Source of the DNA: an uncultured virus (IMG/VR IMGVR_UViG_3300042346_000356)
Lineage: Duplodnaviria > Heunggongvirae > Uroviricota > Caudoviricetes
Length of the DNA: 20,000 nucleotides
Virus record (IMG/VR): IMGVR_UViG_3300042346_000356
Reading direction: 5' to 3' (one strand)
Below the pieces are notes generated by a model, which was not told the origin of the DNA, made no database searches, and saw nothing but the letters and a program-made list of their open reading frames with translations. Below, piece after piece: positions 4,873 through 18,356 of this stretch (position 1 is its first letter; every line of letters starts with the position of its first letter). Position numbers and translations under genes: made by a program.

Positions 4873-4912
4873 AAAATCTCTTTCCTAGTCTATACTATTA
4901 TACACCAGATAG

Positions 4913-4986
4913 TAGAGCAGGTAGGACTTGAACCTACGATAACCGAATTATGAGTTCGGGGCCTTAACCAACTTGGCTACTGCTCC
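4913..4986 (-). tRNA. tRNA with CAT anticodon (elongator Met or Ile2)
   Basis: GGAGCAG...CTGCTCT acceptor stem, CCGAA-CTCATAA-TTCGG anticodon arm, GGTTCAAGTCC T-loop. Confidence 0.9.
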
Positions 4987-8705: not shown

Positions 8706-8706
8706 G

Positions 8707-8779
8707 TATCTCCAACGGGATTCGAACCCGTGTTGCCACCGTGAAAGGGTGGAGTCCTAGGCCACTAGACCATGGAGAC
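8707..8779 (-). tRNA. tRNA-Glu(TTC)
   Basis: GTCTCCA/TGGAGAT acceptor stem, CCACC-CTTTCAC-GGTGG anticodon arm, GGTTCGAATCC. Confidence 0.95.
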
Positions 8780-8780
8780 C

Positions 8781-8854
8781 TGGAGCGAGTGACCAGAATC
8801 GAACTGGCACTATCTGCTTGGAAGGCAGAGACACTACCATTATGTAACACTCGC
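8781..8854 (-). tRNA. tRNA-Gly(TCC)
   Basis: GCGAGTG/CACTCGC acceptor stem with encoded CCA, TCTGC-CTTCCAA-GCAGA anticodon arm. Confidence 0.95.
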
Positions 8855-10438: not shown

Positions 10439-10780
10439 CTACGAGTCTTTCGACTCGCTATCTGTTTCTTTCTCCCAGTATGCTATACCGTCTTCATCGT
10501 AGTCGTTCCAACCATCACCTGACATATCTAAATTCATCTCACTTAATTCTTTCTTCCAAGCACCCATATCTATGGTGTAGTAAGTTCCCCACCATTCATA
10601 AGGCTTGTTTAGTATTCTATACATTTTTGCGTGGTATTTATAACGCCAACCAAAGTCTTCATCTTCATCCAGATTAACACACTTAACTAAATGATTACCA
10701 GCAAACTCTCCACATATATTGCCTATCCATCGTAATGGAAGTATTTTAGTTCTTTCTGTCTTGGTTGAATGATTTATCAT
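10439..10780 (-). CDS. Hypothetical protein
   Basis: ORF-track frame; likely start MINHSTK; Trp-rich acidic C-terminus. Confidence 0.65.
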   Translation of the reverse strand: MINHSTKTERTKILPLRWIGNICGEFAGNHLVKCVNLDEDEDFGWRYKYHAKMYRILNKPYEWWGTYYTIDMGAWKKELSEMNLDMSGDGWNDYDEDGIAYWEKETDSESKDS

Positions 10781-11052
10781 CCTTTGGCACCCACACTTTC
10801 TTTCCATCTTTGTAGACAGGCCAATAGCCTAGGCTACGCCAGTCCATCTGTGCTATCTTTGGTTCCTTCATCCATACTCCTATCCCACAATATTAAGCAC
10901 TTAGTGCATTGAATTCCTTCTTCACGCATATACCAAGTATGGCTACATTCTTTTTGCACACCACACCCTATAATCACTCATTGTCTGATGGTTATCCCAG
11001 TATTCAATGTTTTCTTTGTTCATTCCGCAGGTTTTGCAGATTCTTTCTATCA

Positions 11053-11196
11053 TTACCAGTCCTTATAGTTATCTTTGTTGTCTACGTTCCAAGATGCACT
11101 AATTTTTACTAACTCTTTATGAATAGCCATTGCTCTTTCCCACTCTTCATCAGAGTCATAGGCTGATCTATCAGAATTTGGCAGAAAGTTTATCAT
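11053..11196 (-). CDS. Hypothetical micro-protein (47 aa)
   Basis: MINFLPNSDRSAYDSDEEWERAMAIHKELVKISASWNVDNKDNYKDW; TAATG overlaps with its neighbours. Confidence 0.5.
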   Translation of the reverse strand: MINFLPNSDRSAYDSDEEWERAMAIHKELVKISASWNVDNKDNYKDW

Positions 11197-11307
11197 TATT
11201 GTCTGTGTCGCTTTCTATTGCCAAACTTAGCCTTGATATCAGCCTTAGCCTGATCCACAATGGCTTTAGTAATCTCTTCAACAGTAAACTCTTGGTCGAA
11301 GGTTTGT

Positions 11308-11514
11308 TCAGTATCCACCTAGGCACTCATTTCTTGTATGATATAGTCTAATCTTGGTCATTGTCTTTTTGTTGGGGGCATACAATTCTTCACCGCAACA
11401 AGCAGTCTTAAGATACCACTCTTTGGCAAAGAAGTCATAAACCATACCCTTATAGTTCTCATATTTCTTGGCTACAAAGGTCTCAAATGGGTCAGGTATT
11501 TCCATATTAATCAT
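11308..11514 (-). CDS. Hypothetical Cys/His protein
   Basis: 68 aa; CC...H...C; preceded by TTGACT-N17-TATACT at 11521-11549. Confidence 0.7.
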   Translation of the reverse strand: MINMEIPDPFETFVAKKYENYKGMVYDFFAKEWYLKTACCGEELYAPNKKTMTKIRLYHTRNECLGGY

Positions 11515-11545
11515 ACATCTAGTATAGCGGTTTTGGCGGGGGAAG

Positions 11546-12163
11546 TCAATATGACCTATGATACTTATTATGTCTAACTATAGCCTCAGTGTTAAATACA
11601 ATAGAGTATCTATCTCTTACTCTTAGTGACCAGTCAACATCTTCTTCTTGACCCCATATGAGGTTTTCATTAAGTGGATGGTGCTCCATAACATATTTCT
11701 TGACTATCATATATGATCCAGATATATACATATGTTTGGTCAAAGACCAGTCATCAGTTGGTATCTGGGTATAGCGAGGAATCTTGGGATGATCCCAGAT
11801 AACCCAATCATATCTATATCTAGAACCATCAATGTATAGTTGAGTGTTAGTTGCAATATCCCAATCATTGCCAAAATCAAGAAAAGCAGAATACCACTTA
11901 TAATCAAATATAAAGTAGTCGTGCATCAAAATAACATTTTCGTATTTGGCATTTCTGGATAAGATATTTTTCTTTTTAGTTATCCACATAGGGGTAGGTG
12001 AGTCAAATGGTATTTGGATTACATCTGGATCTATCTGACTATGGGCAGGACCAATGATTAAAATCTCATAGTTAGGTATCTTTAAAGACTTTATGCTTCT
12101 TATAGTCTCAAGTAGGCGATCTACATTTTTGTAGTCAGTCGTAATCCCAAATGTAAAATCCAT
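11546..12163 (-). CDS. Glycosyltransferase family 2-like (GT-A fold)
   Basis: FTFGITT...YEILIIG...WITKKKN...MHDY...EEDVDWS.R. Confidence 0.82.
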   Translation of the reverse strand: MDFTFGITTDYKNVDRLLETIRSIKSLKIPNYEILIIGPAHSQIDPDVIQIPFDSPTPMWITKKKNILSRNAKYENVILMHDYFIFDYKWYSAFLDFGNDWDIATNTQLYIDGSRYRYDWVIWDHPKIPRYTQIPTDDWSLTKHMYISGSYMIVKKYVMEHHPLNENLIWGQEEDVDWSLRVRDRYSIVFNTEAIVRHNKYHRSY

Positions 12164-12279
12164 CTAACAAGTATAGCCTATTTTGCGGGGGAGCATAAGA
12201 GAGCATCGTAATCCCTAGTATAAGATATAAACCCCTATAGCCCCATATACCCAGTAACAGGGTTTGATATCCCCTGGAT

Positions 12280-12366
12280 TTATTGAGTCATACGGATTTG
12301 TTGAAGATAGGCCATATAGTTAAGAAAAATGAATAGGCCAAGCATTATGATTAAGAAAGGTTTCAT
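12280..12366 (-). CDS. Membrane micro-protein (28 aa)
   Basis: MKPFLIIMLGLFIFLNYMAYLQQIRMTQ; ATGA overlap. Confidence 0.45.
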   Translation of the reverse strand: MKPFLIIMLGLFIFLNYMAYLQQIRMTQ

Positions 12367-12503
12367 TTGAAGAAGTCTATCCCCACATACCATTTAAAGA
12401 GATATAAGCCAATCTCCCATTCGTGTTTAATGGGATATCCCCAGTTAGCAACATAGACCCCAATAGCATAGTTAGAGGTCATTCTGCCATAGTGTAGTTT
12501 CAT
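12363..12503 (-). CDS. Aromatic-rich micro-protein (46 aa)
   Basis: MKLHYGRMTSNYAIGVYVANWGYPIKHEWEIGLYLFKWYVGIDFFK. Confidence 0.5.
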   Translation of the reverse strand: MKLHYGRMTSNYAIGVYVANWGYPIKHEWEIGLYLFKWYVGIDFFK

Positions 12504-12524
12504 ATACCTATCATATCATAAGAG

Positions 12525-12755
12525 TTATCCACAGGTGTATAATTAGTGTATGAAGAACTTTATCTACACATATGTGTGTCCAGAGTGTGAGTCTGAACTT
12601 GAGTTTAAGTCAATGAATAAGGCATCAGATGAGGTTATGTGTATGTGTGGATCAATGATGAAGTTGATTAGGTATTGGGCTATAAGTGCAGAGTTAGATA
12701 GTTATCCACAGCCTGATAAGCCAAAAATGTCATAGTTATCCACATGTTATCCACA
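12525..12755 (+). promoter_or_regulatory. Cluster of four perfect DnaA boxes
   Basis: TTATCCACA at 12525, 12702, 12736 and 12747, all in the same orientation and all preceded by G. Confidence 0.8.
12550..12735 (+). CDS. Zinc-ribbon protein
   Basis: YTYVCPEC...CMCG; leaderless TATAAT. Confidence 0.65.
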   Translation: MKNFIYTYVCPECESELEFKSMNKASDEVMCMCGSMMKLIRYWAISAELDSYPQPDKPKMS

Positions 12756-12793
12756 GATTAATCTTACTGATTGTATTGTTTAACATTCTAGAA

Positions 12794-12819
12794 GTGGAGT
12801 GAAGTGGAGGATAGTGGGG
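12794..12819 (+). promoter_or_regulatory. MraZ-type binding repeats
   Basis: GTGGAG-TGAA-GTGGAG-GATA-GTGGGG, 10-bp period. Confidence 0.6.
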
Positions 12820-12894
12820 AATGGAACGCTTTTATAAGGGGGCTCGTAATCTTCTTGACGGCCAAACCTCAAACCTCCAAACCTTTATAGCCGC

Positions 12895-12975
12895 ATTTTA
12901 CCACAAACCTTTATATCTGTCAAACCTTTATATGCATGGTTTGGGCATTATAACCTATAAATTATGGTTTGTCAA
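12895..12975 (-). promoter_or_regulatory. Two tandem consensus sigma-A promoters
   Basis: TTGACA-N17-TATAAT (12975-12947) and TTGACA-N17-TAAAAT with extended TG (12923-12895). Confidence 0.75.
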
Positions 12976-13099
12976 GCCCATTTCATGCAAAACCTTCATA
13001 TAGAATTTGCTCAAATTTGCTCAGAAAATAAAGAAAACCTTTATAAAAATATATAAAGGTTTGATAAATCAGGAGAAAAGGTTTGAAACTGGAAAGAAA

Positions 13100-13360
13100 T
13101 TAGTTCTTCGTAATCTCTGCTTCTTTATTAGTGTATATGGTATACATCTTATTGAAGTCAGATAGTTTTTCTACTGGCAGTCCCCTGAAAAAAAGGCGGG
13201 AGTTATAGAAGGCATGCAAACCACTATACTTAAACAAACCTCTATTGACTCTATCAATTAGTCTACCCATAGCCAAACCTAGTTCTCTTTGATCAGAATG
13301 ATATGATGCCTTTGCATTTACATTTGAACCATTAAACCTTGCATTATTATGAGGACTCAT
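13100..13360 (-). CDS. Hypothetical protein
   Basis: Likely start MSPHNNARF just after TGGTATAAT (leaderless). Confidence 0.6.
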   Translation of the reverse strand: MSPHNNARFNGSNVNAKASYHSDQRELGLAMGRLIDRVNRGLFKYSGLHAFYNSRLFFRGLPVEKLSDFNKMYTIYTNKEAEITKN

Positions 13361-13413
13361 AAAACCATTATACCAGGATATAAGATTTGACAAACCAAGG
13401 TTTGTATGGTATA

Positions 13414-13518
13414 AGGTTTGGGGAAAAATATTTGTCCTTCGTAATATAGGTTTGGGGAAAATAAAGGTTTGATCGTAATATCCAGGTTTGGGGAAAAATT
13501 TTTGATCGTTCGTAATAT
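13414..13518 (+). repeat. Three tandem ~35-bp iteron-like repeats
   Basis: AGGTTTGGGGAAAA-variable-TCGTAATAT starting at 13414, 13448 and 13484. Confidence 0.8.
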
Positions 13519-13589
13519 AGTTGACAAAAAAATGTAATGGTTTGGATATGTCCGATTTGTCTGAATCCTCGGGGATTTCCCCAGCCTTT

Positions 13590-13901
13590 TTACAGGTCTG
13601 GGGTATCCTCAGAAGTTTTCTTTTTGTTGAATGCGTATTGTAAAAGAAACCCTAATTCAATTTCTTCAAGTTCATCTACTTCTTCTTCTTCAACCTTTAG
13701 CAAACCGATAAGCATATCAAATGTTTCTTCAATATACTGTTCTCCAAGTGGTGTTGCCTCTTTAACCAAACCCTGCGCCATCATATACGCCATTGGCAAA
13801 CCAATATCGTTATACTCCACAAAATTCTTGAAGTCTGGGTCTTCTCTAAATTCGATCCATAGTTGCCCTAGGATTCCTGCTTTATCTGCGAGTAGTGCCA
13901 T
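13590..13901 (-). CDS. Hypothetical acidic protein
   Basis: 103 aa ORF overlapping the upstream ORF, AAAGGGA RBS. Confidence 0.8.
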   Translation of the reverse strand: MALLADKAGILGQLWIEFREDPDFKNFVEYNDIGLPMAYMMAQGLVKEATPLGEQYIEETFDMLIGLLKVEEEEVDELEEIELGFLLQYAFNKKKTSEDTPDL

Positions 13902-14127
13902 TGTGTGTCCCTTTCATCTCTAACATAAGTTTATCATACTCTTCCATTGCTGCGAGGCTCATTACCTCAAACCTGTGGTAATTTATTAGTGGTAGGTTTC
14001 TTACTAAGTAAAATCCTACTCTTTCTAAATCAACCGCAAAATCTTGGGTAAGGAGTCTGCCTAACTGCTCTGCTGCTCGTGTTTCTTTTGTCTTGCTTGC
14101 TTCGCTTCGTCTAATTGAATAAGCCAT
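13882..14127 (-). CDS. Hypothetical protein
   Basis: 81 aa, GAGGAG RBS, TGGTATAAT upstream. Confidence 0.8.
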   Translation of the reverse strand: MAYSIRRSEASKTKETRAAEQLGRLLTQDFAVDLERVGFYLVRNLPLINYHRFEVMSLAAMEEYDKLMLEMKGTHNGTTRR

Positions 14128-14152
14128 AGTTACTCCTCTCTTTCATTATACC

Positions 14153-14198
14153 AAAAAAGTAGGGGGAGCGCAAGACTGCAGGTCTCACGCCCCACCCT
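14153..14198 (-). terminator. Intrinsic terminator
   Basis: AGGGTGGGCGTGAGAC-CTGCA-GTCTTGCGCTCCCCCT followed by ACTTTTTT. Confidence 0.75.
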
Positions 14199-14220
14199 TT
14201 ATTACTAGGGGACCCACTCC

Positions 14221-14586
14221 CTAGATTTGCTCAGCCAAAACCTTTGGGGCATATGCATTAATAAAATCTCTCCAGTTGACAACGTTTCCATTATCATCAA
14301 TGATAGTCTCTTTAGACACATCGATAATGACAGTGGTGTCACCTAAATCAAAGTTGGTGCCCTTGACAGCATAAATTCCAAATCCTGTTTCATCCAAGAT
14401 TGAATCTTGCATAAGATAACTAATCATCATACGGTTAAAGTAAGCGTTATCGCTCCACCTAGGCTTTGAATGCTCTAGGGCCATTGCTAGGTCCCGCTGC
14501 CATTCTGTCTCTCCCCAGTGGCTATACAGCACTACAGATGCCTCGTCTTCAACATCCTTGAATACAAAATGAATACGTGCCCCCAT
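14221..14586 (-). CDS. Conserved-type phage early protein (LYSHWG motif)
   Basis: Start MGARIHFVF with a GAGGA RBS. Confidence 0.8.
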   Translation of the reverse strand: MGARIHFVFKDVEDEASVVLYSHWGETEWQRDLAMALEHSKPRWSDNAYFNRMMISYLMQDSILDETGFGIYAVKGTNFDLGDTTVIIDVSKETIIDDNGNVVNWRDFINAYAPKVLAEQI

Positions 14587-14587
14587 T

Positions 14588-14770
14588 TTAGTCCTCTTCC
14601 TCTTCTTCAATTGATTGAATTTCTAAAGGATACCAGTCAATGGCATATACTTCAACATCTTCGTCCCGTTCGATTCTTTCGATCTCAGCAAGGGCATCTT
14701 CTTCAGTCTCCGCCTCAATCTCAAAATCATATTGTGTTTCTCGTGTGGCCTCAATTTTAAACATTGGCAT
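14588..14770 (-). CDS. Acidic protein, DpnD/PcfM-like motif
   Basis: FKIEATRETQYDFEIEAETEEDALA. Confidence 0.7.
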   Translation of the reverse strand: MPMFKIEATRETQYDFEIEAETEEDALAEIERIERDEDVEVYAIDWYPLEIQSIEEEEED

Positions 14771-15218
14771 TTCTATTCTCCAGTCCTACTAGGGTTATCT
14801 CTTCAAGGGTAGCACATTCAGGGCACTTTTCCAAATCGTGCTCATCGAATGCATCTCTAACTATATTATCAGGGTCCTCAAACTCAGCGCTACAGTTCTC
14901 ACAGTAGAACCAATTATAACTAACACGAACCTGTATTGTTACATTATCTGGGCAAGGTTTATCAGTGATAAAATAACCAAGCCTATTAACAAAGCCCCAA
15001 CCAGACCAGATATAACTTCCACCGTCGTCTCCATCTCCATACATCCATATTTTGTTAGCGTCCTGTGCTTTTACAAACTCTACCTCATCGCCATATGTCT
15101 CAAACATAATGCCACCATCCCCATTATCAAATGAGGCATTTGGGTCTATATGATTAACGATTGGCTTATAGGTATCACACCACTCATCAAAGTCCATCTC
15201 AATAAAGTTATCTATCAT
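14757..15218 (-). CDS. Hypothetical protein with C-terminal zinc ribbon
   Basis: FETYG...GFVNRLGYFIT; CENC...CPEC. Confidence 0.8.
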   Translation of the reverse strand: MIDNFIEMDFDEWCDTYKPIVNHIDPNASFDNGDGGIMFETYGDEVEFVKAQDANKIWMYGDGDDGGSYIWSGWGFVNRLGYFITDKPCPDNVTIQVRVSYNWFYCENCSAEFEDPDNIVRDAFDEHDLEKCPECATLEEITLVGLENRNANV

Positions 15219-15427
15219 TATTCCTCCAGTGAAACGGGCGGGTTGTATTCCTTATCAAATATTATATGGTATGCCACTGACAAACCGTCAACAAATCCCT
15301 GTGCCTCTGTGCGCTCCATAGATTGCATTGCGTCGCCATAGTCATTGTCTTCTTCCTCCTTAGCAATCGCTAAGAAATCTAAAGTAGCCTTGTCAATCAT
15401 TTGCTCTAACATTTCTTGTGGTTTCAT
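15218..15427 (-). CDS. Hypothetical acidic protein
   Basis: 69 aa, start/stop overlaps with neighbours. Confidence 0.75.
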   Translation of the reverse strand: MKPQEMLEQMIDKATLDFLAIAKEEEDNDYGDAMQSMERTEAQGFVDGLSVAYHIIFDKEYNPPVSLEE

Positions 15428-15561
15428 TTAATTACCACCAATTTACATTGAGGGCAGTTATCAGGAATAACCTTATCAGTTAAGACGTATCCACACTCAA
15501 CACATTTCTTTACCTTGATAGGCTTTTCTCTATTAAGTAGTTTCCTTAATTCATCGTTCAT
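15424..15561 (-). CDS. Rubredoxin-like zinc-ribbon micro-protein (45 aa)
   Basis: MNDELRKLLNREKPIKVKKCVECGYVLTDKVIPDNCPQCKLVVIK; ATGA overlaps; GGAG RBS. Confidence 0.65.
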   Translation of the reverse strand: MNDELRKLLNREKPIKVKKCVECGYVLTDKVIPDNCPQCKLVVIK

Positions 15562-16788: not shown

Positions 16789-16955
16789 TATTCTCCTACC
16801 TCTATTCCAGCATAAAATGCTATAGTGTTTAGTGTTGTATGTATGTGGCAGTCGCAAGCCTCTCCACCCATATTTTCTTCAAACTCTAGGTGAGAGTAGT
16901 TGCTTTCATATATTTCATTGATTAGGTCGTCTATCGTATTCATTGTTTGGGTCAT
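16788..16955 (-). CDS. Hypothetical protein (55 aa)
   Basis: MTQTMNTIDDLINEIYESNYSHLEFEENMGGEACDCHIHTTLNTIAFYAGIE...; preceded by TTGATT-N17-TACAAT at 16962-16990. Confidence 0.65.
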   Translation of the reverse strand: MTQTMNTIDDLINEIYESNYSHLEFEENMGGEACDCHIHTTLNTIAFYAGIEVGE

Positions 16956-17056
16956 AGATTAATTGTAGCAAAGATTGGGGAAAAAATCAAATCTATCGTA
17001 AAGAAATTTGGGGAAAAATATCATTCCTTCGTAAAATTATTTTATTAAAAATATTA

Positions 17057-17072: not shown

Positions 17073-17099
17073 TTTCCTCGGGGCCCCATTCACGCTCAG

Positions 17100-17173
17100 C
17101 GATTCCAACGGGACTTGAACCCGTAGCCTCTACCGTGACAGGGTAGCGATCTAACCAATTGATCTATGGAACC
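17100..17173 (-). tRNA. tRNA-Asp(GTC)
   Basis: GGTTCCA/TGGAATC acceptor stem, CTACC-CTGTCAC-GGTAG anticodon arm, GGTTCAAGTCC. Confidence 0.95.
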
Positions 17174-18290: not shown

Positions 18291-18356
18291 TAAGCAAATC
18301 AGGATAGTTAGATGTGGATAAAATGGACATTTCGTAAAAGATCACCCCCTAGGCTA

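Follow-up and report, generated by a model that had tools for sequence, protein, structure and literature searches.

In phage T5, an untranslated 1.2-kb segment termed Repeat Region 3 spans the point at which the left terminal repeat stops; it is conserved above the level of open reading frames (ORFs), and Repeat Regions 2 and 3 hold the 7–8 DnaA boxes of the first-transferred region, always paired and 3 bp apart (10.1101/866236). The same study places the T5 origins mid-genome, with the paired repeat boxes not at origins (section 3.3.3), and proposes in silico that the injection stop acts via membrane-bound DnaA, a proposal echoed in PMC13250531. The halt in T5 DNA entry has been an open question for decades, and the DnaA-box idea rests on in silico support. 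Here we analyse a 20,000-nucleotide stretch of an uncultured virus (IMG/VR record IMGVR_UViG_3300042346_000356; hereafter the window) and a hub of about 1.4 kb within it, in which tandem DnaA boxes stand at a fixed distance from a triple repeat spelled like the operator of the division regulator MraZ. A preliminary description had taken this hub for a replication origin or a decoy array for host factors; it missed the context, since the hub most likely marks where a long direct terminal repeat begins.

The 24 public runs that contain the stretch are lake or freshwater metagenomes, and the phage is probably a large virulent lake siphovirus whose host is a freshwater actinobacterium. Compared with the T5 injection-stop region (iss), the hub is likewise an untranslated, repeat-filled segment of ~1.2–1.4 kb at what would be the inner boundary of a ~10–12-kb terminal repeat with small early genes. 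It likewise exceeds neighbouring ORFs in conservation, and its DnaA boxes are paired 2–3 bp apart and number ~7–8 in total; the genome is also of similar scale and carries tRNAs. The two differ in that the host here is probably an actinobacterium, in that the lake-phage boxes are direct tandems, and in that the lake phage adds the MraZ-type triple and GGTTTG/TCGTAA motifs.

A near-invariant block of DnaA boxes, spacer and triple repeat

We fetched 42 related loci via the flanking 103-aa and 205-aa proteins and compared 14 distinct ones, leaving out L016, L025 and L027 as duplicates and L011, which ends 188 bp into the region. Across these loci the region is mostly untranslated, repeat-rich and conserved above the adjoining ORFs, with one 261-nt gene inside. 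Conservation sets in sharply at the tandem DnaA boxes, and the block from there to TCGTAATC (12733–12855) is near-invariant, while a neighbouring protein is only 56–66% identical. The tandem pair is perfect in 9 of the 14 loci and present with at most one mismatch in 11; the gap within it is 2 bp in the window and 2–4 bp, mostly 3, in relatives. Between pair and triple lies a spacer of exactly 38 bp in all 11 loci measured, with a GC content of 18–26% against ~36–39% for the loci and no repeated 13-mer-type units. The triple itself follows the strict pattern GTGG[AG]G three times over in 8/14 loci and a relaxed one in 12/14. Beyond the block, the leftward promoter P_L1 is kept in all 14 loci and P_L2 in 11 (by regular-expression match), the outward promoter P_R is kept in 12 and duplicated in 3, and TCGTAA occurs in every locus in 2–8 copies on the plus strand and none on the minus strand.

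These counts bear out the preliminary description of the individual motifs: the four perfect DnaA boxes, the 10-bp-periodic GTGG(A/G)G triplet, the two consensus promoters on the minus strand pointing at them (12/12 and 11/12 consensus positions) and the outward promoter are all present as it gave them (Table 1). Perfect copies of TTATCCACA in the span number four, all on the plus strand, and boxes with at most one mismatch number 17 in the window against 7.6 expected, a count reached by 1 of 200 shuffles. The contig to which the window corresponds (G001) contains 8 perfect boxes and no copy of the reversed control word, and all but one of the 8 lie outside ORFs of at least 70 aa. The motifs are both enriched over background and conserved in related phages, two properties whose absence that description had listed among its grounds for refutation.

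Further DnaA boxes were observed in intergenic DNA upstream of minus-strand early genes, at 18313–18321 (minus strand) in the window, at 33537 and 35053 in G001 and at 56753/56765 and 58933 in a 95-kb relative (G002). Several of these early-region boxes are tandem pairs with a TCGTCCACA or CTGTCCACA partner 3 bp off, and one tandem pair of G002 lies between divergent promoters at a distance of 12.1 kb from the hub, which is roughly the length of one terminal repeat.

Placement at a putative terminal-repeat boundary

The DUF932 protein encoded in the window is 48–53% identical to, and finds its best matches in, proteins of Streptomyces BE-cluster phages (Stanwilliamsviridae, ~131–134 kb), whose terminal repeats measure ~11 kb according to the accessible part of PMC5764925. 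In these phages the DUF932 gene lies 1.2–2.8 kb from the left end, inside the repeat, with two copies per record. The repeat of NootNoot (NC_042009) comprises 10,787 bp and opens with 888 non-coding bp, followed by minus-strand genes; TTRTCCACA occurs only 7 times in its 131 kb, and two of these words precede the right copy of the repeat, by 93 and 71 bp. A DnaA-box pair just upstream of the repeat (about 62 bp before its start) was found in 10 of 11 BE phages. In nine, the boxes lie at −93/−95 and −71 (−69 in StarPlatinum) from TGTGTAAT[AG], the motif that ends the unique region; this motif was not found in Daubenski by the pattern used, and the repeat start was checked against the record start in three BE phages. 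When the NootNoot junction was used as a blastn query, 27 of 49 records had a best alignment that began at the box (query 247–281).

The lake phage shares this layout in several respects. Its DUF932 gene is on the minus strand near the junction with a 244-aa gene deeper in, a AGTTATCCACA pair precedes the inferred start of the repeat by ~60 bp, and homology sets in at the boxes. The NootNoot 244-aa hypothetical gene is placed like the 244-aa GP88 gene of G001, the two being likened by position and length alone. The window and the NootNoot terminal region have in common TCGTAA repeats (plus strand only), ATGTCCGATTT (as the reverse complement in NootNoot), CCCCATATAC and AGTTATCCACA, and TCGTAA recurs in the first ~800 bp of BE-phage terminal repeats. 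The junctions differ in that the boxes are convergent in BE phages and tandem in the lake phage, and in GC content (~50% versus 36%). As judged from sequence, gene order and shared motifs tie the lake phage to the Streptomyces BE-cluster phages.

Contig depth points to the same place. Logan contigs of four lake runs were placed on positions 10500–15500, with one depth value per contig, and in 4 of 4 runs contig depth approximately doubles at the triple: from 13.6 on its left to 28.5 on its right in run X10, from 34.8 to 64.8–81 in X8, from 34.6 to 55.7–85.8 in X7 and from 8.6 to 16.3–19.8 in X9. The left contigs of three runs stop at 12752–12817, and their right contigs begin at 12788–12789; in X9 the changeover falls at 12875–12904. 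A steady ratio near 2 is what a terminal repeat would be expected to produce, and the location matches the prediction made from the BE phages. Contig ends of the IMG/VR relatives were none of them consistently at the hub.

Several smaller observations concern these junctions. Contigs of three runs seem to skip 215–224 bp (12818 to 13034/13043), which would take out the two leftward promoters together with the CAAACC cluster; these joints match over only 25–27 letters per side and may stem from relatives or repeats, and contig joints with sides below 30 letters were set aside. In BE phages (L054, L056, L058, L061–L068; L053, L059, L060) the repeat ends in ...GCATGTAT / ...GCATGGAT, followed by a near-palindrome, and the DnaA boxes are separated from the end by a palindrome, TTGTGCACAA. 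We found no description of BE-phage DnaA boxes in the searchable literature, and no paper there that joins DnaA boxes, terminal repeat and Streptomyces phage.

A triple repeat spelled like the mraZ operator

In 10.1101/2022.02.09.479790, the MraZ-binding repeats of B. subtilis are three GTGG[A/T]G units with 4-nt spacers, a triple described there as unique in that genome to P_mra; the phage triple also fits the MraZ-binding repeat formula given in PMC12957436. We scanned one genome per prokaryotic species with the pattern GTGGAG-N4-GTGGAG-N4-GTGGRG, which returned at least 121 stretches, of which 80 were fetched; the matches listed are mostly from Actinomycetota, as judged from record titles. 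For 75 of the 80 fetched loci a downstream gene could be called (the first ORF of at least 90 aa within 450 bp of the triple), and among the matches listed 50 of these 75 ORFs encode MraZ (PF02381), typically 143 aa long and starting 24–98 bp past the triple. Some of the remaining 25 are probably wrong-frame picks. Because the bacterial triple sits directly upstream of mraZ, the phage triple can be said to be spelled like a MraZ operator, and this association supports its prediction as a MraZ site.

The resemblance extends to exact spelling, 10-bp period and flanks like those of actinobacterial P_mra (for example AAGTGGAGcaAAGTGGAGtaAAGTGGGGAAT in an Aquiluna metagenome-assembled genome). The phage triple departs from the host promoter in having neither a −35 TTGAC nor a −10 'TA' between boxes 2 and 3, and in standing 38 bp from DnaA boxes, a neighbourhood not seen at the bacterial triples listed. 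Nor does it precede mraZ or overlap a promoter of mraZ or dcw, as a MraZ operator would; there is no conserved ORF downstream of it. The MraZ reading of the preliminary description gains support from the bacterial association. No mraZ homologue was found in six records (G001, G002–G004, one of them 87% complete, and the BE phages NootNoot and Coruscant), and a phage-encoded MraZ was rejected on that ground. We also rejected the idea that the entire block derives from a host P_mra carrying DnaA boxes, given that a perfect DnaA box lies within 200 bp in 0 of 80 bacterial triple loci among the matches listed, where the true host is perhaps unsampled. The literature searched contained no paper on MraZ sites in phage genomes.

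Viral contigs scanned for the triple gave at least 120 stretches, 80 of which were fetched. Among the matches listed, 34 of the 80 loci have at least two DnaA boxes (with at most one mismatch) within 120 bp upstream of the triple, and 33 have two perfect ones. A second lineage of low-GC viral contigs (~33 of the 80 loci; L201–L274, for example L205, L229 and L247) carries the triple in another non-coding context, in the order terminator-like hairpin, triple, AATCATACTAT and then CGTAAT/TTGTCAAT repeats; in L247 the triple is followed downstream by three perfect DnaA boxes.

A candidate gate and its alternatives

The reading we favour, tentatively and at somewhat less than an even chance, is that the unique right end of the genome here meets the start of a ~12-kb direct terminal repeat, with a gate of DnaA and MraZ. 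It starts from what is directly seen, namely the sequences, their conservation, the match to the spelling of the host mraZ operator and the two-fold depth step. From left to right, single DnaA boxes would be followed by the tandem pair, the fixed 38-bp AT-rich spacer and the triple, where the repeat would begin. Inside the repeat, two host-type promoters would fire back over the boundary, followed by the GGTTTG/TCGTAA array, a putative leaderless gene divergent from a third promoter and, rightmost, the predicted terminator of a leftward, host-takeover-like early operon that would fill the repeat. Host DnaA, and probably MraZ too, would bind the fixed array, and the bound proteins would make up a gate where the repeat meets the unique DNA, separating the first-expressed repeat genes from the remaining genome and pausing DNA entry, transcription or both in a T5-like manner. 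P_L1 and P_L2 may then direct transcription over the triple and the DnaA boxes and on into the adjoining minus-strand genes, driving their expression and possibly DNA entry. In the most specific version, which we consider doubtful, DnaA and MraZ bound 38 bp apart would jointly halt the genome once the ~12-kb early repeat has entered, giving an actinobacterial phage a two-step entry like that of T5, and the two consensus promoters would then drive RNA polymerase past the gate and pull in the rest, as in T7.

A number of points weigh against this gated junction. In T5 the boxes lie at least 0.7 kb inside the repeat, whereas the main pair of the lake phage lies ~60 bp outside it, and the role of the T5 boxes is itself an in silico hypothesis. 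Among the BE phages, a GTG[GT] triple occurs in only 1 of 10, the count on which we dropped the triple as a family-wide end motif; Coruscant lacks the DnaA pair; and to the left of the junction genes run on the minus strand in the lake phage and on the plus strand in NootNoot. The depths are per-contig values, and k-mers common to co-occurring strains could mimic the step. That contigs break at the triple is explained by related phages sharing the block; a DNA end is not the cause. What we infer from these data is that DnaA and MraZ bind here, where the DNA physically ends, in which direction it enters and that the array works as a gate.

The principal alternative, unlikely though a real contender, is a DnaA-dependent, transcription-activated origin, in which DnaA would open the 38-bp spacer, with activating transcription or an R-loop primer coming from the two leftward promoters. 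Like DnaA-box origins, the hub has tandem boxes adjoining an AT-rich stretch with short repeats nearby; the perfect boxes have high-affinity-type flanks, two consensus promoters are aimed at them, and DnaB, Pol A and Pol III alpha were not found in the 95-kb relative, of which ~13% or more of the genome is missing. It departs from such origins, whose model is the basal unwinding system of oriC, in lacking DnaA-trios and a Rep gene: by the usual definition of DnaA-trios, the longest run in the spacer was 1–3 trios across 11 loci, not above shuffles, and no initiator gene lies nearby. DnaA pairs also occur at several other intergenic early-region sites, BE phages have DnaB and Pol III alpha genes of their own in addition to the pair, and T5 keeps its repeat box pairs away from origins (10.1101/866236). 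GC skew tracks gene strand in both the window and the 95-kb relative and is uninformative on an origin. The origin proposed in the preliminary description has its DnaA-box cluster and is backed by no specific test. An iteron-type replicon, which has regularly spaced direct repeats of ~17–22 bp beside an initiator gene and of which P1 oriR and RK2 oriV are examples, was rejected: the GGTTTG motifs are irregular and in both orientations, the 34-bp units recur elsewhere, and no Rep family was found.

We have stronger doubts about a landmark for end processing or packaging, in which bound DnaA (and MraZ) would bend or mark the DNA for the correct terminase cut and repeat duplication, much as IHF acts at lambda cosB. 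It would account for the fixed box-to-repeat distance (of the nine BE phages with the terminal motif, eight have the TGTGGATAA box at −71 and StarPlatinum has it at −69), for the comparable 58 bp from the last box to the predicted start in the lake phage, for the depth step at the triple and for the near-invariance of the block; however, no terminase gene was found in the assembled part of the 95-kb relative, other DnaA pairs lie far from any end, and the BE phages examined are closely related, so their fixed spacing may be inherited and not selected. Somewhat less credible again is the decoy of the preliminary description, in which multiplying phage sites would absorb DnaA and MraZ, block host replication rounds and derepress or disturb division genes. 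The box counts in G001, nearly all outside ORFs, would suit it, as would a triple that keeps the exact mraZ-operator formula while lacking the host −10 'TA' and any gene after it, and a second viral lineage with the triple in another non-coding context. A sponge, however, would need neither rigid spacing nor a single orientation nor placement at a repeat boundary, and each genome offers only 3 MraZ boxes and 5–8 DnaA boxes; no finding speaks for a sponge specifically. Least probable of all, and in our view a long shot, these are operators for phage-encoded proteins, such as the product of the small leaderless gene, that merely resemble DnaA and MraZ sites. A conserved, family-less small gene does sit in the hub, and the GGTTTG and TCGTAA motifs, for which there is no known host binder, overlap promoters; against this, a 13-nt match (AGTTATCCACAGG) and the exact threefold GTGGAG-N4 are kept across lake and Streptomyces soil phage lineages, and the small protein diverges fast (12–22% identity) while the sites are invariant.

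Paired DnaA boxes, a conserved untranslated region and a long terminal repeat form a theme common to lake actinophages and cultured Streptomyces phages; its recurrence in unrelated hosts with a rigid architecture suggests that it serves a function which is general and open to selection. At least two lineages of phage contigs carry the MraZ operator in exact copy, which points to use or manipulation of a host division regulator. Were the gate reading true, the timing of infection would be tied to the replication and division state of the host, and BE-cluster Streptomyces phages would offer a culturable system for the T5 injection-stop question. The combination of box pair, 38 bp and triple also provides a practical marker for genome ends in uncultured phage contigs.

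Promoters, repeats and a small gene inside the hub

Table 1. Features of the hub and its edges (window coordinates; a point in the strand column stands for features without orientation).
Feature	Position	Strand	Remarks
Perfect DnaA box, outlier	11980–11988	+	within the 205-aa ORF (11546–12163, minus strand)
Single perfect DnaA box GAGTTATCCACAGG	12525–12533	+	within the variable segment preceding the conserved block
Single perfect DnaA box TAGTTATCCACAGC	12702–12710	+	
Tandem DnaA-box pair (TTATCCACA tg TTATCCACA)	12736–12755	+	boxes at 12736 and 12747
AT-rich spacer, 38 bp	12756–12793	.	conserved word AATCTTACTGATT at 12760–12772
Contig-depth doubling	12788–12817	.	inferred repeat start; BE analogy predicts ~12814
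Three MraZ-operator-type boxes, GTGGAG N4 GTGGAG N4 GTGGGG	12794–12819	+	12794–12799, 12804–12809, 12814–12819; period 10
TCGTAA, first unit	12844–12849	+	more copies at 13108, 13439, 13473, 13510, also 12139, 12206; all +
CAAACC / AAACCTTTATA motif cluster	12863–12932	-	
Promoter P_L2, TTGACA-17-TAAAAT with TG, 11/12	12895–12923	-	reads toward the boxes; scored in relatives by regular expression
Promoter P_L1, TTGACA-17-TATAAT, 12/12	12947–12975	-	reads toward the boxes
Inverted pair of AAACCTTTATA 11-mers	13035–13062	.	
Small leaderless gene (predicted), 86 aa	13100–13360	-	N-terminus MSPHN/MSPRHFSRM; TATAAT at 13367–13372
Promoter P_R (TTGACAAACC...TGGTATAAG), TTGACA-N17-TATAAG	13387–13415	+	
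Three 34-bp tandem units (GGTTTGGGGAAAAAT...TTCGTAATAT), x3.1	13414–13520	+	
Conserved word ATATGTCCGATTTG	13546–13559	+	reverse complement twice in NootNoot terminal non-coding region
Hairpin and T-run	13597–13613	+	end of last early-operon gene (13590–13901, minus strand)

The conserved hub promoters are predicted to be of the sigma-70 type. Promoter-like sites as a whole total 11 against 11.3 in shuffles, with no excess. The abundance of AAACC/GGTTT elements is borne out, with 35 copies of GGTTTG/CAAACC in the window against 9.3 expected (a number reached in 0 of 200 shuffles), 20 of them in 12863–13544, and with 9 copies of AAACCTTTATA against 1.25 expected. The GGTTTG/AAACCTTTATA motifs are 6–11 nt long, in both orientations and irregularly spaced. 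As for the tandem iteron-like repeats claimed earlier, the 34-bp unit is indeed repeated 3.1 times, and it is the iteron character that does not stand; units resembling it occur upstream of other minus-strand early genes.

Those early genes look leaderless, with TACAAT or TATAAT 6–7 nt 5′ of the ATG (16953–17040 in the window; 14110–14215 in L010), and each is preceded by two hub-like GGGGAAAAA...TCGTAA units. Because TCGTAA/GGGGAAAA units stand just upstream of other leaderless early genes, they look associated with promoters and not with replication.

The hub, called non-coding in the preliminary description, is so for the most part, the exception being the gene at 13100–13360. Its TATAAT lies 6 nt before the ATG, from which it follows that the mRNA would be leaderless. 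The frame is open for 67–86 codons in 16 of 17 related regions, and the ORF rule missed L014. Its product has a conserved N-terminus, MSP(R/H)..., and an otherwise fast-evolving sequence (12–22% identity to the more distant relatives compared), and matches no Pfam or PHROG family. Conservation was not seen for the other ORFs of the span (12550–12735 and 12821–13003). The former, on the plus strand between the single DnaA boxes, would encode a 61-aa zinc-ribbon-like product with a Pfam match below the cut-off, and occurs in the closest relatives only.

Relatives have a GC hairpin at the place that matches 13597–13613, and the hairpin at the right edge of the hub is, on its sequence, the predicted terminator of the leftward early operon.

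Genomic setting

The window corresponds to G001, a 36.5-kb viral contig of IMG/VR with a CheckV completeness of 34%, at an offset of +11644, with one substitution and a stretch of mismatches from ~19480 on that is probably an insertion or deletion; its GC content is ~36%. No match was found among cultured phages searched with the DNA of 11500–14200 and with the flanking 205-aa and 103-aa proteins, and an Rfam scan of 11000–14500 gave a single sub-threshold match and no known RNA family. Replication or terminase genes were not found near the hub. In the assembled part of the 95-kb relative (~13% or more of the genome is missing), likewise, neither a terminase nor DnaB, Pol A or Pol III alpha could be recognised, and nothing is concluded from these absences, G002 being incomplete. 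That relative does encode a 3030-aa tape measure protein, a ribonucleotide reductase (RNR), a tryptophan halogenase, a carbamoyltransferase and a glutathione peroxidase, together with at least 9 paralogues resembling 2OG-Fe(II) oxygenase.

The window itself encodes several 2OG-Fe(II) oxygenases, an Hsp20, a HAD/nucleotidyl-transferase fusion, the DUF932 protein and many small acidic ORFs on the minus strand. It also contains five tRNA genes (Arg-TCT, Met, Glu, Gly and Asp), all on the minus strand, at 2511–2584, 4912–4986, 8706–8854 and 17099–17173, and the tRNA-Asp gene lies within the putative terminal repeat.

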